Source: an uncultured Pseudomonadota bacterium (GTDB lineage Bacteria; Myxococcota_A; Polyangia; Fen-1088). From it: 15,413 nt of DNA. The notes beneath the pieces were generated by a model. The model had not been told where the DNA came from and did not search any database. It saw only the letters and a list, made by a program, of their open reading frames with translations. The position numbers were made by a program, and so were the translations under genes. Below are positions 558 to 15,413 of this stretch, one piece after another. Location: positions 1-15,413 of the forward strand of contig CAWKBC010000046.1 in the NCBI GenBank assembly GCA_963847705.1. The letters run 5' to 3'. Position 1 is the first letter of the stretch; each line of letters begins with the position of its first letter.

Positions 558-826
558 TGGATCAGGCCGAACCGATCGCCGGGTTCTACGCGCCGGTCCA
601 TCGCGCGCTCACCGAGCCGATCCTGCTCGGCGGCGCGCCGCGCGCGGTGGCGATCCTGAATGGCACGCTCGCCGCCGCCGTGGGCTTGGGGTTGCGGCTC
701 TGGATCGTGGGCGGCGCCATCTGGCTGATCGGCCATCTGGCCGCCGTCTGGGCCGCCAAGCGCGACCCCGCCTTCGTCGATGTCGTGCGGCGGCACCTGC
801 GCTACCCGCAGCATCTGGTGGCGTGA
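557..826 (+). CDS. trbD: TrbD/VirB3 family protein (89 aa)
   Basis: Starts at ATG 557, overlapping the trbC stop: MDQAEPIAGFYAPVHRALTEPILLGGAPR...WAAKRDPAFVDVVRRHL. The track ORF 335..826 is over-extended. Confidence 0.92.
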   Translation: MDQAEPIAGFYAPVHRALTEPILLGGAPRAVAILNGTLAAAVGLGLRLWIVGGAIWLIGHLAAVWAAKRDPAFVDVVRRHLRYPQHLVA

Positions 827-835
827 GGCAGCGCC

Positions 836-3269
836 ATGATGAACCTCGCCGAATACCGCCACCGCAGCCAGAGCCTGGCCGACTTCCTGCCCTGGGCGGC
901 GCTGGTCGAGAAGGGCGTCATCCTCAACAAGGACGGCTCCTTCCAGCGCACCGCGCGGTTCCGCGGGCCGGACCTGGATTCCGCGACGCCGGCCGAACTG
1001 GTCGCGATCACCGGCCGGCTGAACAACGCGCTGCGGCGCCTCGGCTCGGGCTGGGCGATCTTCATCGAGGCACAGCGCCTGCCGGCCAACCGCTACCCCG
1101 AAGGCGAATTCCCCGACGCCGCCTCGCGCCTGGTCGATGCCGAGCGCCGGGCGCAGTTCGAGGAAGAAGGCGCCCATTTCGAGAGCCGGTATTTTCTGAC
1201 GCTTGGTCTGGCTGCCGCCGGCCGAGGACGCCGCCCGCGCCGAGGCCTGGCTCTATGAAGGCCGCGCCCGCGACGGCGCCGATTGGCGCGCGGCGCTGGC
1301 GGGGTTCATCGACCGCACCGACCGGGTGCTGGCGCTGATCGAGGGCTTCATGCCCGAGGCCGAGTGGCTCGATGATCCCGAGACGCTGACCTACCTGCAT
1401 TCCTGCATCTCGACCCGCCGCCAGCGCGTGCGCGTTCCCGAAACCCCGATGCACCTGGACGCCATCCTGGTGGACGAGGAACTGACCGGCGGCCTCGAAC
1501 CCCAGCTCGGCAGCGCGCATCTGCGCACGCTCACCATCATGGGCTTCCCGTCGCGCACCTGGCCGGGCCTGCTCGACGATCTGAACCGGCTGGCCTTTCC
1601 CTATCGCTGGTCCACCCGCGCGATCTGCATGGACAAGACCGACGCCACCAAGGTGCTCGGCCGCATCCGCCGGCAATGGTTCGCCAAGCGCAAATCGATC
1701 ATGGCGATCCTGAAGGAGGTGATGACCAACGAGGCGTCCGTCCTGATGGACAGCGACGCCGCCAACAAGGCGCTCGACGCCGATCAGGCCTTGCAGGAAC
1801 TCGGCTCCGATCTGGTCGGCCAGGCCTATGTCACGGCCACGATCACCGTCTGGGATGCCGATCCCCGCGTCGCGGAGGAACGCCAGCGCCTGGTCGAGAA
1901 GACCATCCAGGGCCGCGACTTCACCTGCATGCGCGAGACGGTGAACGCCATCGAGGCATGGCTCGGATCGTTGCCTGGCCACGTCTACGCCAATGTCCGC
2001 CAGCCGCCGGTCTCGACGCTCAACCTCGCCCACATGATGCCGTTCTCGGCCGTGTGGGCCGGGCCGGAACGGGATGAGCATTTTGGTGGGCCGCCGCTGT
2101 TCTTCGCGCGAACGGAAGGCTCCACCCCGTTCCGGTTCTCGCTGCATGTCGGCGATGTCGGCCACACGCTGATCGTGGGGCCGACCGGCGCCGGCAAGAG
2201 CGTGCTGCTGGCGCTGATGGCGCTCCAGTTCCGCCGCTATCCCGGCGCGCAGATATTCGCCTTCGATTTCGGCGGCTCGATCCGCGCCGCCGCTTTGTCG
2301 ATGGGCGGCGACTGGCACGACCTCGGCGGCGCGCTGGCCGACGACATCACCGAACCCGTCGCCCTCCAGCCGCTGTCGCGGATCGACGATGCCGGGGACC
2401 GCGCCTGGGCGGCGGATTGGGTCGCGGCCCTGCTGGCGCGTGAGTCGGTCACGGTCACCCCGGAACTGAAGGAGCATCTATGGTCCGCGCTGACCTCGCT
2501 TGCGTCCGCGCCGGTGGCGGAACGGACGATCACCGGCCTCTCCGTCCTGTTGCAGTCCAACGCGCTGAAGCAGGCCTTGCAGCCCTATACGCTGAACGGG
2601 CCTTGGGGGCGGCTGCTCGATGCCGAGACCGAGCGTCTCGGCGAGGCGGATGTCCAGGCGTTCGAGACCGAGGGGCTGATCGGCGCGGGTGCCGCGCCCG
2701 CCGTGCTGTCCTACCTGTTCCACCGCATCGAGGATCGTTTCGACGGCCGGCCCACGCTGCTCATCATCGACGAGGGCTGGCTCGCACTCGACGACAAAGG
2801 CTTCGCCGGCCAGTTGCGCGAATGGCTGAAGACGCTGCGGAAGAAGAACGCGAGCGTCATCTTCGCCACGCAGTCGCTGGCCGACATCGACGGCAGCGCC
2901 ATCGCGCCCGCGATCATCGAAAGCTGCCCGACGCGGCTGTTCCTGCCGAATGAACGCGCGCTCGAACCGCAGATCGCAACGATCTATCGCCGCTTTGGAC
3001 TGAACGATCGGCAGATCGAGATCCTCAGCCGCTCGACGCCGAAGCGCGACTATTACTGCCAGTCGCGGCGCGGCAATCGCCTGTTCGAGCTGGGCCTCTC
3101 CGAGGTGGCACTCGCCTTCACCGCCGCCTCCTCGAAAACCGATCAGGCCGCCATCGCAACCCTTATGGCCGAGACAGGAAAAGCCGGTTTCGCCGCCGCG
3201 TGGCTGCGCTCCAAAGGGCTGCATTGGGCGGCCGATATGCTCAACCAAAATTCGGAGGTGCCGTCATGA
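836..3269 (+). CDS. trbE: Conjugal transfer ATPase TrbE/VirB4, with one +1 frameshift near 1203-1206
   Basis: N-terminus MMNLAEYR..LADFLPWAALV..LNKDGSFQRTARFRGPDLDS; Walker A GPTGAGKS; Walker B LLIIDEGW; LRKKNASVIFATQS. Removing one base from ctTGgtc joins ESRYFLTL to VWLPPAED. Confidence 0.93.
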
Positions 3270-4009
3270 GCGGCTATCGTTTTCGCGCCGCGCTCGCCGC
3301 TGGCGTTGCCGTGCTCACGTTCGCCACGGCGAATGTCCCGGCGCGCGCGCAATGGATCGTCTATGATCCGACCAATTTTTCCCAGAATGTGCTGACCGCT
3401 GCTCGCGAGTTGCAGCAGGTCAATCAGAATATCCAGAGCCTGGAAAACCAGGCCACCATGCTGATCAACCAGGCCAAGAACCTGGCGAGCCTGCCGTATT
3501 CGTCGCTGGCTCAGCTCGAAGCCTCGATCCAGCGCACTGAGCAACTGCTCATGCAGGCGCAGAATATCGCTTACAGCGTCACGACAATCGACCAGGCGTT
3601 CACTCAGGTCTATCCGCAGAGCTATTCGGGATCGACATCCAGCACGCAAATGCTCGCCGATGCGCAAACGCGCTGGCAGAACGCGCGCGCTGGCTATCAG
3701 GATTCGATGCACGTCCAGGCGGGCGTGGTGCAGAACCTCCAGAACGCGCAGACGCAGATCAGCGCGCTGATATCCTCCAGCCAGTCGGCAAGCGGCGCGC
3801 TTCAGGCCGCGCAGTCCGGCAACCAGATCATGGGCCTCGCGGCGCAGCAGCTCGCCGATCTCACCGGCGTCATCGCCGCGATGGCGCGCGCGCAAAGCCT
3901 CGACAATGCCGGCCGGCTGGAGAGCGAGGCGCAGGGCCAGCAGCAGATGCAGAACTTCCTGAATTACGGCGCCGGCTATCAGCCCGGCAACGCGCAGATG
4001 TTCCACTGA
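3266..4009 (+). CDS. trbJ: P-type conjugative transfer protein TrbJ (VirB5-like), 247 aa
   Basis: ATG 3266 overlaps the trbE stop (ATGA), with GGAGG upstream. Signal peptide, then IVYDPTNFSQNVLTAARELQQVNQNIQSL, GALQAAQSGNQ and C-terminal YQPGNAQMFH. Confidence 0.92.
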   Translation: MSGYRFRAALAAGVAVLTFATANVPARAQWIVYDPTNFSQNVLTAARELQQVNQNIQSLENQATMLINQAKNLASLPYSSLAQLEASIQRTEQLLMQAQNIAYSVTTIDQAFTQVYPQSYSGSTSSTQMLADAQTRWQNARAGYQDSMHVQAGVVQNLQNAQTQISALISSSQSASGALQAAQSGNQIMGLAAQQLADLTGVIAAMARAQSLDNAGRLESEAQGQQQMQNFLNYGAGYQPGNAQMFH

Positions 4010-4290
4010 TGCGCGGCCGGCTTCTCAATCTTCCCGCGATCGGCCGCGCGGCGGGATGCCTGCTGGTTGCCGCGGCGATTATCGCGGCGGCCGTGCAGTT
4101 TCATCGCCACGGCGCGCCACGGCCTTTGCCAACATCTTCGGCGGCGTCTCGTCCCGATCCATTGGCGGCAGCTATGGCACGTTGCCAGGCGCTCGGCATG
4201 GCGGCGGAGAACGACGCAGCCTGCCAGGCGGCCTGGGCCGAGAACCGCCGCCGCTTCTTCAATGATTTGCCGGCGCCGGAGGCTCGGTAA
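4009..4290 (+). CDS. trbK: Putative entry-exclusion protein, TrbK-alt type
   Basis: Lies between trbJ and trbL; N-terminal hydrophobic anchor; DPL...ARCQALG.AA.ND.ACQAAWAENRRRFF two-Cys motif. Confidence 0.8.
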   Translation: MRGRLLNLPAIGRAAGCLLVAAAIIAAAVQFHRHGAPRPLPTSSAASRPDPLAAAMARCQALGMAAENDAACQAAWAENRRRFFNDLPAPEAR

Positions 4291-4295
4291 TCGCG

Positions 4296-5575
4296 ATGGG
4301 CGGCACCGGCGTCATCGACGGGTTCCTCGGGACCTTCACGCAATACATCGATTCCGGCTTCGGCCTGGTGCAGGGCGACGTGCGCTGGCTCGCCGGCGTT
4401 CTGATCGGCATCGACATCACGCTCGCCGGCCTGTTCTGGGCGCTGGCGCCCGACGAGGACGTGCTCGCCCGGCTGATCAAGAAGACGCTCTATATCGGCG
4501 TCTTCGCCTTCATCATCGGCAACTACAACAACCTCGCCCAGATCATCTACAATTCCTTCGCCGGGCTCGGCATCGAGGCGGGCGGCGGCACGATGAACGC
4601 CGCGCAGCTTCTGCAGCCCGGCAAGCTCGCCCAGGTCGGCATCGACGCCGGCAAGCCCATCCTGACCTCGATCTCCGGGATGATGGGCTTCACCAGCGTC
4701 TTCGCGAACCTCGTGCAGATCATCATCCTGCTCGTCGCCTGGATGATCGTCGTCATCAGCTTCTTCATCATGGCGATCCAGCTCTTCGTCAGCCTGATCG
4801 AGTTCAAGCTGACCACGCTCGCCGGCTTCGTGCTGGTGCCGTTCGGCCTGTTCGGCCGCACCGCCTTCCTCGCCGAGAAGGTGCTCGGCAACGTCGTCTC
4901 GTCCGGCGTGAAGATTCTGGTGCTGGCCGTGATCGTCGGCATCGGCTCGACGATCTTCGGCCAGTTCACCAACGGCTTCAACAATCCGCCGACCATCTCC
5001 GACGCGCTGACGCTGATCCTCGCCTCGCTGGCGCTGCTCGGCCTGTCGATCTTCGGGCCCGGCATCGCCAACGGCCTGATCGCCGGCGGCCCGCAGCTTG
5101 GCGCGGGCGCCGCTGTCGGCACCGGCCTCGCCGTGGCCGGCATCGGCGCTGCGGGCGCCGGGCTCGTGGCCGGTGGCGTCGGCGCCATTGGTGCTGCCGG
5201 CGGTGCCGTGGCTGGCGCCGCGCGCGGCGGCGCATCGATCGCGGGTGCCGCCACCACGGCCTATCGCGCCGGCGGCATGTCCGGCGTCGCCGAGGCCGCC
5301 GGCTCCGCCGCGATGAGCCCGCTGCGGCGTGCCGCCGCCAGCATGCGCGAAAGCTTCGCCGCCGGCGGCCGGGCCGTGACGGGAGAAGGCGTCGGGGGGT
5401 CGGCGCGTCTCCCGGTGGTTCGAGCCAGGGCGAAGCGGCCGGGCCGCCCGCCTGGGCGCGCCGGATGCAGCGCAACCAATCCATCAGCCGCGGCGCCAGC
5501 GCCGCCCATCAGGCGATCCGCTCCGGCGATCATCCGTCGAGCGGCGGCGGCATCGACCTGTCCGAAGGGGAATGA
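4296..5575 (+). CDS. trbL: TrbL/VirB6 inner-membrane protein, with a -1 frameshift near the G6 run at 5394-5399
   Basis: MGGTGVIDGFLGTFTQYIDSGFGL; IEFKLTTLAGFVLVPF; Gly/Ala-rich tail. The typical C-terminus GPPAWARRMQR...AIRSGDH...IDLSEGE* lies in another frame ending at 5575, and one extra G restores it. Confidence 0.9.
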
Positions 5576-5578
5576 TCC

Positions 5579-6260
5579 ATGTTCCGAAGGCCCATCGTCC
5601 GCTACGGCAAGACGCCCGAACCCGAGACGCCCTACCAGCGCGCCGGCCAGGTCTGGGATGACCGCATCGGCTCCGCCCGCGTCCAGGCGAAGAACTGGCG
5701 GCTTCGCCTTCTTCGGCGCGCTGGCCCTCAGCGGCGGCCTCGCCGGCGGCCTGGTCTGGCAATCGGCGCGCGGCACCATCACGCCCTGGGTGGTGCAGGT
5801 CGACAAGCTCGGCCAGGCGCAGGCGGTCGCGCCCGCGACCGCCGACTATCAGCCGACCGATCCGCAGATCGCCTGGCATCTGGCCCGCTTCATCGAGGAG
5901 GTGCGCAGCATCCCCGCCGATCCCGTCGTGCTGCGGCAGGACTGGCTCGACGCCTACAACTACGTCACCGACAAGGGCGCGCTGGCGCTGAACGATTACG
6001 CGCGCACCAACGATCCCTTCTCCAAGGTCGGCAAGACCCAGGTCGCCGTCGAGGTCTCCAGCGTCATCCGCGCCTCGGCCGACAGCTTCCGCGTCGCCTG
6101 GACCGAGCGCCGCTACGTCGATGACGCGCTGGCCGCCACCGAGCGCTGGAGCGCCATCCTCACCATCGTGGTGCAGCCGCCGACCGACGCCGATCGGCTG
6201 AAGAAGAACCCGCTCGGCGTCTACGTCCACGCCCTCAACTGGTCAAAGGAGCTCGGCTGA
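5579..6260 (+). CDS. trbF: Conjugal transfer protein TrbF (VirB8-like), with a +1 frameshift at 5703-5704
   Basis: MFRRPIVRYGKTPEPETPYQRAGQVWDDRIGSARVQAKNWRL joins AFFGAL...PWVVQVD...KNPLGVYVHALNWSKELG* on removing one T. Confidence 0.92.
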
Positions 6261-7247
6261 TGCGCGTAGCGCCCCTCGCAATCCTTCTGCTTGCCGGCAC
6301 GTCGCTCGGCGCCTGCTCCACCTGGAAGCCGCCGGAGATCAAATACGACGACACGCCGAAACAGGCGGTGCTGGCGCCCGATCCGCCGAAGCCGGTGGAG
6401 ATCGTCCAGTTGCCGCAGCCTCTGCCGCTGCCGGGCCAGCTCAAGCCGATCCCCGGCGCGCAGGACCGCGCCGCCGGAGGCCGCCGATCCGCGCGTCCGC
6501 GTGGATCAGGCCAATGGCGCGGCCCGCGTGCAGCCGACGCGGGCCGGCTACATCAATGCCATCCAGGTCTATCCGTTCTCGGACGGCGCCCTCTACCAGC
6601 TCTATGCCGCCCCCGGCGAAATCACCGACATCGCGCTCGAAGCCGGCGAGCAGCTCGTCGGCACCGGCCCGGTCGCCGCCGGCGACACGGTGCGCTGGAT
6701 CATCGGCGACACCGAGAGCGGATCCGGCGCCACCAAGCGGGTCCATATCCTGGTCAAGCCGACCCGGCCGGATCTCGTCACCAACCTGGTCATCAACACC
6801 GACCGCCGGACCTATCACCTGGAACTGCGCTCGGCCGAGAAGACCTACATGGCCTCGGTCTCCTGGGCCTATCCGCAGGACCAGCTCATCGCGCTGCGCC
6901 GGCAGAACGCCGCCGCCGATGAGGCGGCGCCGATCGCGTCCGGCGTCGATATCGGCGCGCTCAATTTCCGCTACCGGATCGAGGGCGACGATCCGGCCTG
7001 GCGGCCGCTGCGCGCCTTCGATGACGGGCGGCAGGTGTTCATCGAATTCCCGTCCGGCATCGGCCAGGGCGAGATGCCGCCGCTCTGGGTGATCGGCGCG
7101 GAGGGCGGCGCCGAACTGGTGAACTACCGCGTGCGCGGCAACCACATGATCGTCGACCGGCTGTTCGCCGCGGCCGAGCTGCGGCTCGGCGGCGAGCATC
7201 AGCAGAAGGTCCGCATCGTCCGCACCGATGGAAGGCCGCAGTCGTGA
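6260..7247 (+). CDS. trbG: P-type conjugative transfer protein TrbG (VirB9-like), with a +1 frameshift near the C4 run at 6451-6454
   Basis: Lipoprotein-like leader LLLAGTSLGAC; PLPLPGQLKP; GYINAIQVYPFSDGALYQLYAAPG; AAGDTVRWIIGDT; WRPLRAFDDG; ELVNYRV; VDRLFAAAELRLG. Confidence 0.92.
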
Positions 7248-8417
7248 CCGAGGGCGCGAACGATGCGGGCGGCGACGGGCGGCCGGCGGTCGAGATGCGC
7301 CTGCGCCCGAGCCGGGCGCCGGTCACGCGGCTTTCGCGCAAGGTGCTGCTGGGCCTGGGCACGGTGGCCGCCGTCGGCATCGGCGGCGCGCTGTTCTTCG
7401 CGCTGCGACCGCAGCATCAGACCGGCGGGTCAGAACTCTACAACACCAGCAACCGCACGACGCCGGACGGGCTGGCCAACTTGCCACGCGACTACACCGG
7501 CCTGCCGCACAACGCGCCGCAGCTCGGGCCGCCGCTGCCCGGCGATCTCGGCCGGCCCATGGTGAATGCCGGCACGGCCGCGCCAGGCATGCCGCAGCCC
7601 GCGGCGGGACCGAGCCCTGAGCAGCAGCGCATCGCCCAGGAGCAGGAGGCCGCGCGAACCAGCCATCTGTTCGCGACCACCAATGCCGGGCAAACCGTCT
7701 CCGCCGTCATTCCGGCGGCGGCGGCACTGCCCGGCGCCGTGCCCAACGGCTGCAGGATCGCCGGGCCTGACCTCCCAGGACCACAAGCTCGCCTTCCTGA
7801 ACGGCGACGTCGATCGGCGGACCGTCAGCCCCGATCGCGTCGAGGCGCCGGCCAGCACCAATATCCTCCAGGCCGGCGCGGTCATCGCGGCGTCGCTGCT
7901 GACCGGGCTGCGCTCCGATCTGCCCGGCCAGGTCACCGCCCAGGTCACCGAGAACGTCTATGACAGCCCGACCGGCCGCATTCTGCTGATCCCGCAGGGC
8001 GCCCGGCTTGTCGGCCAATACGACGCCCAGGTCGCCTTCGGCCAATCCCGGGCGCTGCTGGTCTGGAACCGCCTCATCATGCCGAACGGCCGCTCGATCG
8101 TTCTGGAGCGCCAGCCCGGCGCCGACCCGGAGGGCTATGCCGGCCTGGAGGACCAGGTCGATAACCACTGGGGCATGCTGTTCAAGGCGGCGATCCTCTC
8201 GACCCTGCTCAGCGTCGGCTCCGAGGCCGGCACCAGCGACAACGAGAACTCCCTCGTCCAGGCCATCCGCCAGGGCGCCTCGCAGAGCTTCAGCCAGGTC
8301 GGCGAGCAGGTGGTCGGCCGATCGCTGAACGTGCAGCCGACCATCACCATCCGGCCGGGCTTTCCGGTGCGGGTGCTGGTGACCCACGACCTCGTTCTCG
8401 AACCCTATCAGAGCTGA
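7244..8417 (+). CDS. trbI: TrbI/VirB10 family protein, with a +1 frameshift near 7742-7746
   Basis: GTG start overlaps the trbG stop. N-terminal half: PVTRLSRKVL, TM segment, PQLGPPLPGDLGRP. Second frame: LQAGAVIAASLLTGLRSDLPGQVTAQVTENVYDSPTG, GYAGLEDQVDNHW, QPTITIRPG, DLVLEPY. Confidence 0.92.
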
Positions 8418-8426
8418 GGACCGACC

Positions 8427-8666
8427 ATGGCCAAGTTGAAGCTCGGCGCCATCGACGACGACAAGCCGGTGAAGCTCACCGTCGAACTGCCGGCGGCCAT
8501 CCATCGCGATCTCGTCGCCTACGGCCAGGTGCTGGCGCGCGAGACCGGTCAGGGCGCACCCGAGCCGGCGAAGCTGATCGCCCCGATGATCGCCCGGTTC
8601 ATGGCGACGGATCGCGCCTTCGCAAAGCTCCGGCGGCCCGCGCCGGCGTCAGACAAGGCGCCGTGA
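8427..8666 (+). CDS. DUF2274-like small protein
   Basis: MAKLKLGAIDDDKPVKLTVELPAAIHRDLVAYGQVL...EPAKLIAPMIARFMATDRAFAK matches the small conserved gene usually found after trbI. RBS GAGGA upstream. Confidence 0.85.
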   Translation: MAKLKLGAIDDDKPVKLTVELPAAIHRDLVAYGQVLARETGQGAPEPAKLIAPMIARFMATDRAFAKLRRPAPASDKAP

Positions 8667-9547
8667 ACGGGTCTCGTCGCGCAGGTAGGCGACAAAACGG
8701 CCGACGGCCGCGTCCTCCAGCTCGGGTCGCCAGACCAGCTCGATCTGCAAGCGACGCATTCGTCTCTGCGATCGGCCGGAACACCACGCCGGGTACGGTG
8801 ACCTCGGCCTGGCTCGCCGTCGCCAGCGTCACGCCAAAACCCGCGGCGACCAGCGCGAAGACACTCTGCTTGCTCGCCGGCGTGCGCGATGAGAATCGCG
8901 ACGCTTTGCCCAGCAGGGACGCGTAGAGTTCCCGCGTCGCCTGACTGTCGTCCCATTCCTGAATCAGGATCGTCCTCGTCCCGGAGATCGGCCCAATCGA
9001 CGGACTTGCGCTCCGCCAGCGCGTGGTCGTGCGGCAGCTGCCGCGACAGGCGCTCGAGATAGAGCGGCAATGCTTGCCGCGCTGCCGCAGGGCGTAAAGC
9101 TGGTGATCAGTCCGACATCCAGCCGGCGGAGTTCCAAGCGCTTTGGCCATGCCGGCTCGTTCATCTCGGCGATCGTCAGCGCGACATTCGGGTGCCGCTC
9201 CCGCCAGCCCGCCAGCAGGCTGACCGAGTGGCTCACCGACGGGTGGCATCCGCACGCCGAGCCGGATCGCGCCGATATGTCCTGATCCCGTTCTCGCCGG
9301 CCGCGCGGACCACGGCGTCGAACTCGGCCAAGGTCCGGTTCACATGCCCCATCAGCGACTGGCCGCCCGCCGTGAGATGCACGCCGCTCTTCGCCCGCTC
9401 GAACAGGGCAAATCCCAACTCGTCCTCGAGCCGGCCGATGCGACGGCTGATCGTCGAGGTATCAAGGCCAAGCGACTTCGCGGCGCGGCCGAAATTGCCG
9501 GCGTTGGCAGCCGCGGCGAGATATTTCAGGTCGACGATGTCCATCAT
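8649..9547 (-). pseudogene. LysR-family transcriptional regulator, multiply frameshifted in this sequence
   Basis: HTH MDIVDLKYLAAAANAGNFGRAAKSLGLDTSTISRRIGRLEDELGFALFERAKSGVHLTAGG. Substrate-domain pieces in shifting frames: IRLGVRMPP, WRERHPNVALTIAEM, RRLDVGL, LPHDHALA, ALVAAGFGVTL, PGVVFRPI, IELVWRPELEDAAVGRFVAYLR..LV*. RBS AGGGAG upstream of ATG 9547. Confidence 0.85.
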
Positions 9548-9942
9548 CGGCGCGCTCCCTCGCGGCCGCTGATCCAGCCGTCCGGGCGCCAGCCATCCGC
9601 AAGGATTTCTGGCTGGAGCAGGTCGGAAACGGTGAGAGCGATAAGCCTTGATCTGTGCCAAACATGTGACGACCCTTTCTTTCGGTCGCCCGGCTCAGTC
9701 AGTTGCAGTGTTCGCGTGCCCGCTGTCCCCCGCGGCTGGCCTCCTGCGCGAACCGCACCTGGTGCCGGTGCAACCCATTCGCCAAGTGGCATCGTCGCAG
9801 GGCGACGCCGTCCACTTTGGGGAAATCGGTATGGAGGGCTTTTCCGTCAAGAAACGCGCCATTGGTCGGCCAGACACTCTGCGGGCCTCGTTCGAACAAG
9901 GACACGCCGACTGCGTCGTCCAAGGGCGGCAAGTCGGCGATG

Positions 9943-10028
9943 GATTATCGCGCATTTCAGATGCGGGAAAATTCTTGCTCCCCGGCGTCGAGTGTGGGAT
10001 TATCGCGCATCTGAGATGCGGGATAATC
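9943..10028 (+). promoter_or_regulatory. Two 31-bp palindromic operator-like repeats around a putative sigma70 promoter of the HipA-like gene
   Basis: 9943-9973 GATTATCGCGCATTT-C-AGATGCGGGAAAATT and 9998-10028 GATTATCGCGCATCT-G-AGATGCGGGATAATC are 27/31 identical at a 55-bp offset; copy 2 has 14/15 self-complementary arms. Promoter candidate: TTGCTC (9975-9980), 17 bp, GATTAT (9998-10003), with TG at the extended -10 position. Confidence 0.75.
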
Positions 10029-10030
10029 GA

Positions 10031-11887
10031 ATGGCGATCTACCTGGTCGGAGAGACGATAGACGCCAAACGAGCATACCAGCGCGCCCAAATCGGCGAGT
10101 TGATCCCGCTCGTTCGCGGCGTCTATGCCGATCACGACGGCGACACAGAGATGGCTATCCTGGGCCACGCCGTCCGCATCGCGCATTACCTATACCCAAA
10201 CGCCTACCTATCATCCGCCAGCGCGGTCCTGCTCGCGCCCACCCCGGATGGGCGCCTCTTCATCAGTGGCCGCCGCAACCAGCGCACAAGGTTGCGGACC
10301 CTGGAGATCATCCAAAACGAAGCGCCGAGCCACCCCTCGACGGCGATCGCCGTCATTGGCGATGATCTCGGAGAACTGCGCATCGCCGCGTCGTCGCCAC
10401 GACAGCGCTTCCTCGAAGCCTTTCGGCTGAGGAGCGAGCACGCCAGCGCCATCACCGCCGAGATGCGCGCGCAAATGGCCGCGCGGTTGGTGGCGGAACA
10501 CGGCACGCCCCAGGCGGCGGCTGATGCGGTTTGGGCACTTGCCCGCGAGAACGAATGGTATCGGGAGGGCGAGGGCGCCGAACGCTTTCTCCTCGCCAAA
10601 CCCGGCGGCGCGGCGCCTGTGAACAAGGCCGCGCTCAATCTTTTGGTCGCCTGGCACGGCGATCTGGTCGGTCGGTTGACCCATGACGGCTTCGAGTGGC
10701 GTTGGAAACCCGAGCGGCGCACCGGTCCGGCGCTCATCCGCGAGACGATTCCTGGCAAATTGCCGGCCTTCATCGAATCGTTGCTGCCCGAGGGCTGGCT
10801 CGCCCAGGTCCTGCATGAACGCGACGAGCGCGACACCCTGCGAAGTGGTCGACGCTACATGTCGAACATCGCCATCGTCGAAGACCGCGATCAGCGGGCG
10901 GCGCTGCCGGCCGACGTGCTGTCGACCCCACTCGCCAGCTTTGCCGCCGACGGTCGCTTCACAGGGGTCTATGCCGGCCCCCGACGCGGCGAAATCGAAG
11001 AGACTTTCGAGCAGAATCTGGCGCGCATGTTTGCGCGCGCCGAAACGCCACGCTTGTCGGGCGTCCAGATCAAGGCGCCGATGAGCCTGACCGAGGACGG
11101 CGCCCTGGTCCCGGCGATCGACCAGCCCTTCACCCACATCCTGAAGCCGGCCGGCACAGCGGGCTTCGACATGCTGCCGATCGTCGAATGGCTGTGCCTC
11201 GAACTCGGGCGCGCCGCGGGGTTCGAGACGCCAGACGCCGCGTTGATTGCGATGCCGGACGGCATGCCGCCGGCCCTGGTGGTCGAACGGTTCGACATCA
11301 GGCGGGGACCGCACGATCAGCGCCGTCTCGCGATGGAGGATTTTTGCTCCATCTTGGATCTTCCGACATCGGCGAAATACGACGGAACGATCGAGAGGAT
11401 GGCGCGCGCCTTGCGCCCGCTGTCCACTGATCCGGCCTCGGACCTCAACATCCTGTTCCGACGCGCGGTGTTCGCCTGGTTGATCGCCGATGGCGATATG
11501 CACCTGAAGAATCTCGCCGTCCTCAAGACGGCCGAAGTGGGGGCGAAAACGTTCACTTCCGTCCGTTTTGCGCCCCTCTACGATGCCGTGACCACGCGGG
11601 TTTTCCCAGGCCTTGCCGGCGATCGAATGGCCCTGAAACTGAATGGCAAGGATGATCGTCTGACGCGCCAGGATTTTATCGCCTTGGCGCGCACAATCGG
11701 TCTCAGGGTCGAGGATGCTGAAGCCGGGCTCGACGCCCTCGCAACGCGCGTCACTGATCGCCTTCTGACCCTTCAGCTCCCCGCTTTCGCCGGTGAGTTC
11801 GATGGCGCCAAGACCGTGCGCGATAAGGTTGAGGCCATCGTAGCCGCACGTTGCGTGTCTCTTTCCACGAAAAGCCGGTCTGAATGA
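10031..11887 (+). CDS. HipA-family Ser/Thr kinase (618 aa) with a ~195-aa N-terminal AbiEi-like extension
   Basis: Kinase motifs RLSGVQIK, HILKP, LVVERFD, MEDFCSIL, DGDMHLKN, FAPLYD; HipA N-subdomain LLVAWHGDLVGRL...LPAFIESLLPEGWL. Start set at ATG 10031 after GGGA; the track start at 9344 overlaps lysR antisense. Confidence 0.88.
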   Translation: MAIYLVGETIDAKRAYQRAQIGELIPLVRGVYADHDGDTEMAILGHAVRIAHYLYPNAYLSSASAVLLAPTPDGRLFISGRRNQRTRLRTLEIIQNEAPSHPSTAIAVIGDDLGELRIAASSPRQRFLEAFRLRSEHASAITAEMRAQMAARLVAEHGTPQAAADAVWALARENEWYREGEGAERFLLAKPGGAAPVNKAALNLLVAWHGDLVGRLTHDGFEWRWKPERRTGPALIRETIPGKLPAFIESLLPEGWLAQVLHERDERDTLRSGRRYMSNIAIVEDRDQRAALPADVLSTPLASFAADGRFTGVYAGPRRGEIEETFEQNLARMFARAETPRLSGVQIKAPMSLTEDGALVPAIDQPFTHILKPAGTAGFDMLPIVEWLCLELGRAAGFETPDAALIAMPDGMPPALVVERFDIRRGPHDQRRLAMEDFCSILDLPTSAKYDGTIERMARALRPLSTDPASDLNILFRRAVFAWLIADGDMHLKNLAVLKTAEVGAKTFTSVRFAPLYDAVTTRVFPGLAGDRMALKLNGKDDRLTRQDFIALARTIGLRVEDAEAGLDALATRVTDRLLTLQLPAFAGEFDGAKTVRDKVEAIVAARCVSLSTKSRSE

Positions 11888-11998: not shown

Positions 11999-12021
11999 CA
12001 AACGTCGAAGTGAAGTTCTCA

Positions 12022-13212
12022 ATGAACCCAAAAAAGAAAATCAAACGGTCGGCATTGCATCGCATGGTCTGGGAAGAGGCGCTTTCAAAGCTGGCGCCGA
12101 AACTCGGTTTGTCCGACGTCGGCCTGCGCAAGATCTGCAAACGCCACAACATTCCGTTGCCGCCACAAGGTTATTGGGCGAGATCGCCGGAACGACGGCT
12201 CGCCGAAGCGAATACCCTTGCCGCAACCTGACAAAGACTGGGATCTTGAATTCATCATTCCGCCGCAGGCGACGCCCGAAGGGAACAAAGCGAGCTGGAC
12301 GAGAAATTCGGGCCGCAGATCGCGGCAGAGAGTCTGCCTGAAAATCAGATTGCCGTGGTCGCGAACCAAGAGCCGCGCCATTTGATGACGAAAGCCGTCG
12401 CAAAGCGCTTGGAAAAGGCGCGTGCGGACCAGTACGGCGGGATCACCTGCGCGATCCCGGCGGCATTTCGCGTACGCGTGCCGCGAGAGTCGATTGATCG
12501 CGCCCTCGGCATCATTGACGCGCTCGCCGTAGCGTTCGACGCGCGTGGTCTAGCCATTGAGAAAGGAGCAGAAAACGGCACGGCCGAAGTCCGGGTCGGC
12601 GGCCAATTGCTGCGCCTTAGCCTTGAGGAAACCTCGTCCCGCCAGGTTCATCGAGCGACAGAAGTCGAAAGGGATGCAATCCGCCGGCGCGGCTACAGTT
12701 CTGCGCCGCTCTATGATTTTCGCCCGAGCGGGAACATGACGCTCAAGATCGAGAATATCTGGCAGGCAGGCGTTCAATCCTCCTGGCGAGATACGTCAGC
12801 CCGGCGGATCGAGGATCGGCTCAATGAGGTCATGGCCGGCCTCTACAGAGCCGCTCACGCCATAGACATCAAGGAACGGAAGGAAGCCGAGCGCCAGCGG
12901 CGCGTCGACGCCGAGAATGCTCGCCGCGCCGGCCTTCGGAGCGAGCGCGAGAACGAGGCAAAATTCTTCACTCAACTCGAGGCCAGCGCCAAAGACTGGC
13001 ATCGCGCTGAAATACTGCGCGGCTTCGCTGCCGCGGTTGAGGCGAAGGCCCGCCAAATTGACGGAACTCTGCCTGAGGATAAGGCGGCGTGGGTGTTGCG
13101 GGCGCGACGGATTGCGGACCGCGTCGATCCGTTGACGCCAAACCCGCCGTCGCCGCTCGACTACGCGGACGCCGACCTGCGGCCGCTCTATGGTTGGGAA
13201 ACCTTGGATTAA
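12022..13212 (+). CDS. Conserved hypothetical protein (~396 aa) with an HTH-like N-terminus; two compensating frameshifts (~12200, ~12282)
   Basis: RSALHRMVWEEALSKLAPKLGLSDVGLRKICKRHNIPLPPQGYWAR, then PKRIPLPQPDKDWDLEFIIPPQATPEG in the +1 frame, then back in frame EQSELDEKFGPQIAAESLPENQIAVV...WHRAEILRGFAAAVE...ARRIADRVDPL. Track ORFs 12010..12231 and 12355..13212 share a frame. Confidence 0.7.
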
Positions 13213-13280
13213 AGCATTCCGCATTACCTCAATCGCCATAGACACTGAGCAGAGGTCAGTCTTTAGGGCGGTTGGTATTA

Positions 13281-13423
13281 CTTGGACGGAAAAACATTCT
13301 CTTTAAGAATATCAAGTGGTCGGTCCGACCACGGACAATCGAGTGGGATCCGTTTCCGTCAAGAAATCCGGAACCTGATCGCCAAACGGACCGATTTTTT
13401 CGGTCGTCAAATCCGTACGGATT
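13281..13423. repeat. Cluster of short palindromes and ACGGA/TCCGT repeats
   Basis: GTGGTCGG-T-CCGACCAC (13316-13332), GACCGA-TTTTT-TCGGTC (13389-13405), AATCCGTACGGATT (13410-13423); seven ACGGA/TCCGT copies in about 140 bp. Confidence 0.65.
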
Positions 13424-13530
13424 GGTGATCCTGCCCTCGTGCGCGATCATGCCGCCGATATCAGCTAGGGCATTGCGGGGCTTTTTTCGATGGCCGCTAA
13501 ATCATCTTCGCGGGCCTGGTGGACCATGGC

Positions 13531-13565
13531 TCAATCTTGCGCGCAGCAATTTCGCGCAAGATTGA
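13531..13565. repeat. Perfect 13-bp inverted repeat with 9-bp spacer
   Basis: TCAATCTTGCGCG-CAGCAATTT-CGCGCAAGATTGA. Confidence 0.85.
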
Positions 13566-13582
13566 ATCCAAAACGCGCGAGT

Positions 13583-13744
13583 TTAAGGCTTATGCGCAGG
13601 ACTGGTTACGCGCAGGACCGCTTCGGCCTGGATGGACTTGGAGCGCGCCATCATTCGATCGCCGCCTCGAACGCGGTTGCTCCGCGCCAATCCGACCAGC
13701 AGAACTTCACCGTCCAGATCGAGGTGGACCTCGAAATCAGCCAT
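13583..13744 (-). pseudogene. Truncated HipA-family toxin, N-terminal ~28 codons only
   Basis: MADFEVHLDLDGEVLLVGLARSNRVRG resembles the start of XRE-paired HipA toxins, and its ATG overlaps the XRE stop (ATGGCTGA). The frame closes at 13583 with no kinase motifs. Confidence 0.6.
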
Positions 13745-14071
13745 TCCGCGGTCCTGCGGGGGGCGGCGCGAGGTGGACACGTTTGGGCAGGGCCGCACTC
13801 GCCAGCACCTGTCCGGTGGGATCGTTGCCGATGTCGGCGAGGTTTCCGAGACCTTCCAGCATGCCGAGCGCCTGGAGAACGCCGGCATAGATCCCGATGC
13901 TGACGTTGCGTCCCCCGCCTCGATCCGCTGGAGGGTCGAGCGCGACGTGAATGCGCGTTCGGCCACCACAGCCATGGGCAGCCGCCGGCGCCGACGGGCG
14001 TCGCGGATGTCAGCACCAAGCTTGCGCAAGGCACGCCGAACGGCCGCGGAGGGAGTATGGGGTGTCGGCAA
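13737..14071 (-). CDS. XRE/HipB-like helix-turn-helix antitoxin (~111 aa), with a -1 frameshift near 13908
   Basis: TTG start after AGGAAGG; LRKLGADIRDARRRRRLPMAVVAERAFTSRSTLQRIEAGD. Adding one base continues as NVSIGIYAGVLQALGMLEGLGNLADIGNDPTGQVLASAALPKRV...RNG*. Confidence 0.8.
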
Positions 14072-14102
14072 GTGACGCCTTCCTGAGCCAGTAAACGAGA
14101 AT

Positions 14103-14131
14103 AATGTAGCACGAAGTTCACAAAAACGCCA
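14103..14131 (-). promoter_or_regulatory. Possible extended -10 promoter of the XRE gene
   Basis: Minus strand TGGCGT-17 bp-TACATT with TG one base before the -10, about 30 bp upstream of the TTG start. Confidence 0.3.
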
Positions 14132-14299
14132 GTGGACCCTCAAGGCCGGGCTACGTTCAGGTTTAATCCATCGCCGCCTCGCCGATCACGGGGATATGCT
14201 TTCCGCTCTTGGTGCCCGGAAAACTGATGGCATGGTCTTGCCCCTGCACCAGGCGCGCTGAAGGCCCAGCGCCTTCAACGGCCAGCCGTCTTGGCAACT

Positions 14300-15413
14300 T
14301 TACCTTGGTAGCGGATCGGTCCCTTGATCGAGCAAGGCAAGATAGTCCGCGTAGGCGTAAATCCGGCCGCGTTGCCGTCCAGTGGTCTCGCGCACGATAT
14401 CGACCTTGATCAAATTATTCAGCGCGATCCCGGCGGTGGGAAAGGAGACGCCGAGCTTTTCTGAAACCGTCTGGATGGTGACGATCGGGCTGGCCTGCAT
14501 CAGTTCATGGACCCGAAGCGCTGACGCGGCGGCGCGGCCGAGGCGGGCAATCTTCTGTCGATGGGCGTCGAACATGGCGATCAGATCGCGCGCCGTCGCC
14601 GCGGCTTGTTCGGCGGTCTCCGCAACGCCGGTCAGGAAGAACTCCATCCAGGTCTCCCACGTCCCGGCCTGCCGGACCTCCTGCAGGAGCCGGTAATAGT
14701 CGTCGCGCCGGGATTTCAGGAACAGGCTGAGATAGAGGATCGGCTCGCGCAGCACCCCCGCCTCACACAGGATCAGCGTGATGAGCAGCCGGCCCAGGCG
14801 CCCGTTGCCGTCGAGAAAGGGATGGATCGTCTCGAACTGGACGTGGGCCAGGCCCGCCCGGATGAGCGGGGGCAGCGCCGGATCCTCGCTGTGTAGGAAG
14901 CGCTCCAGCGCATCCAGGCATTCGTCCAGCCGGTTCGGCGGCGGCGGCACGAACAGAGCGTTGCCAGGCCGGGTTCCGCCGATCCAGTTCTGCGAGCGGC
15001 GGAACTCGCCCGGTTGCTTTGCAGCGCCCCGCCCGGACTTGAGCAGGATGGCGTGCATCTCGCGGATCAGCCGGAGCGACAGGGGAAATCCGCCCCGCAT
15101 CCGGGAGACGCCATGCTCGATCGCCGCGACGTAGTTGGAAACCTCGGTCACGTCGTCGAGTTCGACCGTCGGCGCCTCGTGATTTTCGAACAGCAGGAGG
15201 TCCGACAGCGAGGATTGCGTGCCCTCGATCTGCGAGGACAGGAGGGCTTCCTTGCGGACGTACATGTAGAGAAACAAGGGCGTCGAGGGTAGGATCGTCG
15301 TCACGCCATCGAGGCGCCCGACCGCGGCGATGGCGCGTTCGTAGACGCGCATGAACCGCCCAAGCTCGAGCGCCGGCTTCGGCGGCAGCGGGGCGGGCAC
15401 ATAGGCGCGCACG
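14300..15413 (-). CDS. Fic-family protein (N-terminal Fic_N region, Fic core, C-terminal HTH-like region); true start probably beyond the window edge
   Basis: Catalytic loop HPFLDGNGRLGR; inhibitory motif SSQIEG; PGEFRRSQNWIGG; C-terminal IVTIQTVSEKLGVSFPTAGIALNNLIKVDIVRETTGRQRGRIY. Confidence 0.93.
   Translation of the reverse strand, partial: VRAYVPAPLPPKPALELGRFMRVYERAIAAVGRLDGVTTILPSTPLFLYMYVRKEALLSSQIEGTQSSLSDLLLFENHEAPTVELDDVTEVSNYVAAIEHGVSRMRGGFPLSLRLIREMHAILLKSGRGAAKQPGEFRRSQNWIGGTRPGNALFVPPPPNRLDECLDALERFLHSEDPALPPLIRAGLAHVQFETIHPFLDGNGRLGRLLITLILCEAGVLREPILYLSLFLKSRRDDYYRLLQEVRQAGTWETWMEFFLTGVAETAEQAAATARDLIAMFDAHRQKIARLGRAAASALRVHELMQASPIVTIQTVSEKLGVSFPTAGIALNNLIKVDIVRETTGRQRGRIYAYADYLALLDQGTDPLPR

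Follow-up and report, generated by a model that had tools for sequence, protein, structure and literature searches.

We found that one gene in the window (the whole stretch of DNA analysed, 15,413 nt, which is the entire contig C46 of a 6.1-Mb genome) encodes a single polypeptide in which an AbiEi-like module, a domain resembling HipS and a kinase of HipA/HipT type follow one another. This fusion architecture is real and conserved, is built of known parts and is apparently undescribed. It was not found in the literature searched; the family could still be present in subscription papers or among the candidates that defence screens list in their supplements. In the available text of a survey that distinguishes ten gene organisations of Hip kinases (Gerdes, 2021; PMC8262856) none is like the fusion, which is thus an organisation missing from that set; ten family motifs also found no match in its Table S1, for which the positive control worked and where the cells, cut at 400 letters, cover the N-terminal motifs. 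The features of the locus are collected in Table 1.

Table 1. Features of the fusion kinase gene and its upstream region (positions in the window)
Feature	Position	Strand	Details and basis
Distal palindrome (operator 1)	9943..9973	.	Two 15-bp half-sites, 1-bp centre; both palindromes in 77/80 loci
Predicted -35	9975..9980	+	TTGCTC, often TTGAC in relatives; inference from conservation and spacing
Predicted -10	9998..10003	+	GATTAT within operator 2, 17 nt after -35 and with a TG two bases ahead of it; inference from spacing and conservation
Proximal palindrome (operator 2)	9998..10028	.	31 bp, ends 2 nt before the start codon; 2-nt gap in 62/77 loci
AbiEi-like / HipS-like / HipA-HipT-type kinase gene	10031..11887	+	618 aa
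Reduced winged helix	10031..10135	+	aa 1-35: strand, helix 12-20, wing hairpin 24-34; AlphaFold model
AbiEi C-terminal-like domain	10136..10594	+	aa 36-188, nucleotidyltransferase-like fold, arginine-rich; Foldseek/structural alignment
Flexible linker	10595..10630	+	aa 189-200; pLDDT <50 at 192-197
HipS-like domain	10631..10885	+	aa 201-285, E254 and W256 (= HipS E63, W65); sequence alignment
Kinase core	11036..11758	+	aa 336-576: Gly-rich loop with S343, catalytic D489, Mg-binding D518; Pfam and alignment

The open reading frame, its coordinates and its motifs, as read from the letters in the earlier note, all recur in the translation. The start codon, ATG 10031, is kept across loci, and at least 600 aa are encoded in 77 of 79 of them. 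A longer N-terminus, offered by an 847-aa reading frame, was ruled out: 61 of the 79 loci have an in-frame stop at most 15 codons upstream of the equivalent ATG, so the extension is incidental. A full-length model (pLDDT 91, pTM 0.75) matches HipA, HipT and AbiEi. Contigs of four RNA runs cover genic and intergenic DNA equally and are therefore uninformative on expression of the gene.

The kinase part is the most easily recognised. Pfam HipA_C matches residues 342-576 (E 4e-43; 148 bits, cut-off 30.5), with nothing above cut-off elsewhere in the protein, and the best sequence match in the PDB is Legionella HipT (122 bits vs 75 for HipA and 61 for HipT(Ec)). The catalytic residues noticed previously are indeed intact, and the catalytic Asp could be narrowed to the second one of DGDMHLKN, D489, which aligns to D197 of HipT(Lp). 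Segments S343-K348 and D489-N494 as well as D518 are invariant in all 23 members aligned, and the kinase motifs are intact in 217 of 217 full-length members of a partly redundant set. The protein is a member of the HipA-homologous kinases and its core is intact; kinase activity is predicted. Since the target of HipT(Lp) is likely not one of the known HipA/HipT targets (PMC10653801), a tRNA-synthetase target should not be assumed.

The middle part had been taken for a HipA N-subdomain and its Trp motif had been missed; our comparison places it nearer the HipS of split systems than the sampled HipA N-subdomains. A profile of the family domain gives a median of 13.9 bits on 20 split HipS vs 4.2 on 21 fused HipA. 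Residues 205-270 are closest in sequence to HipS chains, both matches being weak (7czo, E 0.011; 7ab3_B, E 0.069), and the match to Couple_hipA is weak as well (E 0.064). SLLPEGWL of the fusion aligns to SLAPEGWL of HipS, which puts E254 and W256 at E63 and W65. In E. coli HipS, W65 wedges the Gly-rich loop of the kinase outward and is required for neutralisation (PMC10627512); the HipS of Legionella pneumophila does not use the Trp. PEGW is present in 213 of 217 full-length members (again partly redundant) and missing in three of 11 distant fusions. This Glu/Trp motif is not exclusive to HipS: at least two of 40 ordinary fused hipBA kinases carry PEGW (2/16 among the matches listed). Because the inhibitory Trp motif lies here, the middle domain seems the likelier antitoxin, and the AbiEi-like part would serve as a repressor and possibly as a sensor.

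The N-terminal domain has the two-domain fold of AbiEi, a likeness that is clear by structure prediction and weak by sequence. Its AlphaFold model (aa 1-194, built from 93 sequences, pLDDT 94) was searched with Foldseek, a check that the earlier note had named, and S. agalactiae AbiEi (6y8q) came top (E 3.5e-6; Z 11.5, rmsd 5.4, 167 residues aligned), with Rv2827c as the next entry. Model residues 1-188 align to AbiEi 14-195, and 1-194 to Rv2827c 27-274; the other matches are nucleotidyltransferase folds, including MenT1 (Z 10.2). At the sequence level the PADLOC AbiEi profiles reach only E 0.02-0.05, while AbiEi_4 matches two distant fusions (E 4e-4 and 1.5e-3). The canonical order of the winged helix in AbiEi is H1-S1-H2-H3-wing (PMC3985639). 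In the model, strand 3-6 is followed by a single helix before the wing hairpin, and AbiEi residues 1-13 are left unaligned; H1 and most of H2 are predicted to be lacking, with the recognition helix and wing kept. The C-terminal-like domain is as conserved as the kinase (mean pairwise identity 84% among 78 members).

We also searched for the N-terminal domain on its own. A free-standing form could not be substantiated: the 120 best of 452 shorter matches vary in length and are fragment-like. ESM Atlas contains unnamed look-alikes of 170-203 aa, one with AbiEi_1 in 20% of members. The domain was further seen behind unrelated sequence (deaminase, WGR domain) or as a 157-aa frame (P0242, P0246, P0247; L092), in what are probably broken or chimeric genes.

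Two palindromes precede the gene, in agreement with the operators that had been proposed there; their binding by the fusion protein is predicted. We compared 80 sequences, namely 79 loci and the window (L002 was left out as truncated), and 77 contain both palindromes, with a spacing of 55 nt in the window and 53-56 nt across loci. A profile trained on the same 80 sequences that were first counted has no match at 911,575 other positions, and a scan of the 6.1-Mb genome with it returned these two sites only and no further operator of a wider regulon. Among 29 held-out loci, two sites were found in 17, one in eight and none in four; two more were left out as their start motif was unmatched. In the subgroup of 60% identity the palindromes are 62-65 nt apart.

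The predicted -35 lies between the palindromes and the predicted -10 within the proximal one, a layout that suggests a repressor. The TTG of the -35 is conserved to 98-100% in the 62 loci with 55-nt spacing, vs 33-59% for the spacer behind it, and the proximal palindrome of relatives holds GATTA(T/A) 17 nt after the -35 hexamer; a consensus promoter scanner found no promoter at these positions. Autorepression of the gene through the palindromes is likely. An RNA hairpin was rejected as their main role because the mismatches of the proximal palindrome are mostly non-pairing (31 G-T, 50 A-C and 111 other) and the distal palindrome precedes the predicted -35. It should be mentioned that base 3 of the half-site tracks helix residue 12 (scored with base 3 masked while calling sites): a residue other than K/R goes with T in 77 of 77 cases, and K/R with C in 20 of 22, the other two being tied. 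This post hoc relation is suggestive: each character changes four times on a 46-row tree, but only two independent pairs are on well-supported branches, too few for significance (p 0.5).

The gene is monocistronic and without a conserved partner, in line with the earlier statement that no antitoxin gene is co-transcribed upstream; the nearest upstream gene in the window is a divergent, frameshifted lysR whose end is 483 nt away. In total, 617 genes around 79 loci formed 432 clusters, and 11 loci is the most in which any of these neighbour clusters adjoins the gene. No partner gene is common to the 10 annotated plasmid regions. Same-strand genes within 110 nt occur upstream in five and downstream in six of the 79 loci and are nearly always different. 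No adjacent HTH antitoxin gene (hipB) is conserved in the 79 loci, no AbiEii nucleotidyltransferase occurs among the 112 representative neighbours scanned with Pfam, and no downstream gene is conserved. Four loci (L008:5321-5896, L010, L009:4928-5509 and L088:1-625) have separate genes of the AbiEi family or DUF6088 a short way upstream of the fusion. At L037:2436-5780 (minus strand) three genes in an unusual arrangement, an HTH gene, an NTP_transf_8 nucleotidyltransferase and a HipA, follow one another and are divergent from the fusion.

Of the 79 loci, at least 39 have mobile-element genes nearby and at least 15 other toxin-antitoxin genes; at least 22 have recognised defence genes no more than 6 kb away, a raw count uncorrected for background. 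By type, as lower bounds, the defence neighbours are Azaca (10), RM/GmrSD (4), Gabija (3) and others; since ten loci share one Azaca-bearing context, the 22 are not independent. The gene adjoins Azaca in L011, L014, L017, L019-L022, L024, L028 and L029, often in a recombinase/ParB element by an integrase. No PADLOC model, run also on 26 neighbours, covers the fusion kinase.

In the window the gene is located in the cargo region after a trb conjugation cluster (genes named by homologues in L003 and L013); the order is trb cluster, DUF2274, lysR, fusion kinase gene, split hypothetical gene, hipBA remnant and Fic gene. The trb genes and lysR (800-9550) are frameshifted. Alignments of 7.9 kb with close relatives contain 24-28 gap openings, and LysR is intact in L003 (296 aa), so a good number of the breaks probably stem from errors in the assembly. 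Another trb cluster, at G000:C4:25381-32913, is 77-85% like this one. Behind the kinase gene, 12010-13212 (plus strand) holds a hypothetical gene that is split in two and 86% like the one following the L005 kinase, and 13660-14120 (minus strand) is the remnant of a separate hipBA operon, a frameshifted HTH gene and the first hipA codons, 72-75% like plasmid hipBA loci. This hipB-like remnant 1.7 kb downstream was rejected as an antitoxin because 12042-14231 is missing in three close relatives, L001, L002 and L071. A convergent Fic gene (14300-15412, minus strand; PADLOC SoFic, E 4.7e-121) also stands beside the kinase in L001 and L002.

As had been anticipated, the family has homologues under a generic HipA label, which is their annotation throughout, and they are numerous. 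Of 7997 scored candidates, 2343 pass E 0.001, a count that includes generic HipA. We collected 80 genome loci at 70-98% identity, nearly all from Alphaproteobacteria, the closest relatives being from Acetobacteraceae (95-96%). Full-length matches occur in 70 plasmid records (at least 80% coverage), about 40 of them of one Pseudosulfitobacter plasmid type, and in three of 15 viral loci; phage records gave no full-length match. Cultured carriers include Acidiphilium cryptum JF-5, Nitrobacter hamburgensis X14, Caulobacter sp. Root655 and rhizobia. The N-domain profile found 279 matches in 1.84 billion representatives; among the 150 listed (18 scanned), HipA_C is present in each of the 11 that measure 600-684 aa, whose identity goes down to about 30%. 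The gene is absent from all 25 same-genus genomes searched, and 400 genomes of the class yielded one partial match (eight candidates scored per genome). The 19 sampled fusions form one clade (support 100/99). The best-scoring metagenome outsiders are split HipS+HipT pairs, followed by fused HipA without the Trp. The tree picks no sister, as the AU test rejects neither a grouping with split systems (p 0.36) nor one with fused HipA (p 0.41), and an origin by re-fusion of HipS and HipT was not retained. The gene is accessory, and its family is monophyletic, patchy and mobile.

We lean towards a self-contained module in which an AbiEi-like repressor, a HipS-like brake acting in cis and a kinase effector are combined and released by a trigger, most plausibly phage. 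Very probably, the helix and wing would bind the four half-sites, one protomer each as in AbiEi/Rv2827c, and the bound protomers would cover the -35 flank and the -10 and keep the protein scarce. W256 would then probably wedge the Gly-rich loop outward as W65 of HipS does in HipT, and autophosphorylation of S343 may be a second brake. The last step is evenly poised in our judgement: the loop would be freed by cleavage or by a trigger that either the tethered AbiEi C-terminal domain or the surface of HipS detects, and the kinase would phosphorylate an essential host protein, which need not be a tRNA synthetase, leading to abortive infection. A fused toxin-antitoxin is hardly able to kill after segregation, and therefore a triggered role is favoured, as in CapRel (PMC10440598). 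More tentatively, and with rather more doubt than belief, one may see in these proteins a new family of immune kinases encoded by single genes, each chain containing the whole of a HipBST-like circuit. The place of HipB would be taken by a module derived from AbiEi, with a minimal helix-and-wing reader, that both acts as repressor of the gene and detects a phage product; the covalently tethered HipS would be a releasable allosteric brake, a single residue-base pair (residue 12 and half-site base 3) would set operator specificity, and the whole would be a kinase counterpart of CapRel.

Other readings deserve attention. The protein might resemble YjjJ/HipH in being a regulatory kinase of mild activity that represses its own gene, adjusts the growth, division or metabolism of the host to the benefit of the mobile element and plays no part against phage. 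HipH follows the same monocistronic logic of a DNA-binding domain plus kinase, YjjJ phosphorylates RpmE and CsrA without conferring antibiotic tolerance (PMC9948734), and many loci are without a recognised defence neighbour; however, YjjJ is not kin (NCBIfam YjjJ, 14.3 bits against a cut-off of 401), the gene is accessory and the inhibitor-type motif is kept, and we regard this reading as unlikely. The cargo position after trb, the full-length copies on plasmids and the exposed linker of the full-length model would suit an addiction or maintenance module of ICEs and plasmids, in which proteolysis after element loss strips off the N-terminal AbiEi/HipS portion, so that the kinase persists in a stable and toxic form. 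Yet toxin and antitoxin share one chain, and because the flexible linker lies before HipS, a cut there leaves HipS on the kinase, which makes such a module quite improbable.

Finally, the AbiEi-like domain could itself be the antitoxin or an enzyme: it might hold the kinase in check or promote kinase autophosphorylation, counteract AbiEii-type toxins in trans, or be a nucleotidyltransferase. The conservation of its C-terminal part, the likeness to MenT1 and two AbiEii matches elsewhere in the genome agree with this, and so does the finding that AbiEi, besides binding AbiEii, brings about AbiEii autophosphorylation (bioRxiv 10.64898/2026.01.19.700257). On the other hand, the strand after the SSASA helix (75-80), where an Asp-x-Asp motif is expected in a nucleotidyltransferase, has no conserved motif of this type, AbiEii is absent from the 112 neighbours scanned, and AbiEi itself matches the same nucleotidyltransferase folds (PMC7319586). 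We give this possibility very little weight.

The releasable module that we favour matches the earlier idea of an antitoxin/regulator domain grafted onto a toxin kinase in its AbiEi fold, intact kinase and operators, and departs from it in that the likelier antitoxin is the HipS-like domain; the label type IV given to AbiEi has also shifted, as AbiE is classed as type VII in a 2026 preprint (bioRxiv 10.64898/2026.01.19.700257). With its AbiEi module attached to a toxin from a different class, the fusion is a direct example of the shuffling of antitoxin domains. Because HipS is fused to the kinase and its inhibitory Trp is nevertheless kept, the question of dissociation vs an allosteric brake becomes testable in one protein. 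The control of monocistronic Hip kinases was stated to be unknown (PMC8262856), and here an operator, a predicted reader helix and a candidate brake have all been mapped for one of them.

Comparison with known systems showed that the fusion is not a member of HipBA, HipBST, HipH or AbiE. It shares with AbiEi and Rv2827c the two-domain fold and long inverted repeats across the promoter, with two operator pairs as in Rv2827c and one in AbiEi (PMC7319586), but its winged helix is reduced, its arms are 15 bp with a 1-bp gap rather than 23 bp with a 3- or 13-bp gap, and, unlike AbiE, it is attached to a kinase and has no cognate AbiEii. HipH/YjjJ has the same domain logic with an HTH part of about 100 aa in a total of 443 aa, whereas the fusion has a 190-aa AbiEi-fold module and a HipS-like domain. 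HipL is also monocistronic, comprises three domains including a HipS-like one and is proposed to act in phage defence, but its order is kinase-HipS-HIRAN and the fusion is without HIRAN. CapRel would resemble the fusion in its model of action, with toxin and inhibitor in one chain and activation without dissociation (PMC10440598), and has no homology to it. HipBST of E. coli O127 and Legionella pneumophila has the equivalents of both HipS residues and, in HipT(Lp), the best PDB match of the kinase; it consists of three separate genes, hipB, hipS and hipT, whereas the fusion is one polypeptide of its own clade, has no HipB and carries an AbiEi-fold regulator. The predicted mode of action is that of a HipBST joined into one chain, its repressor being of AbiEi type.
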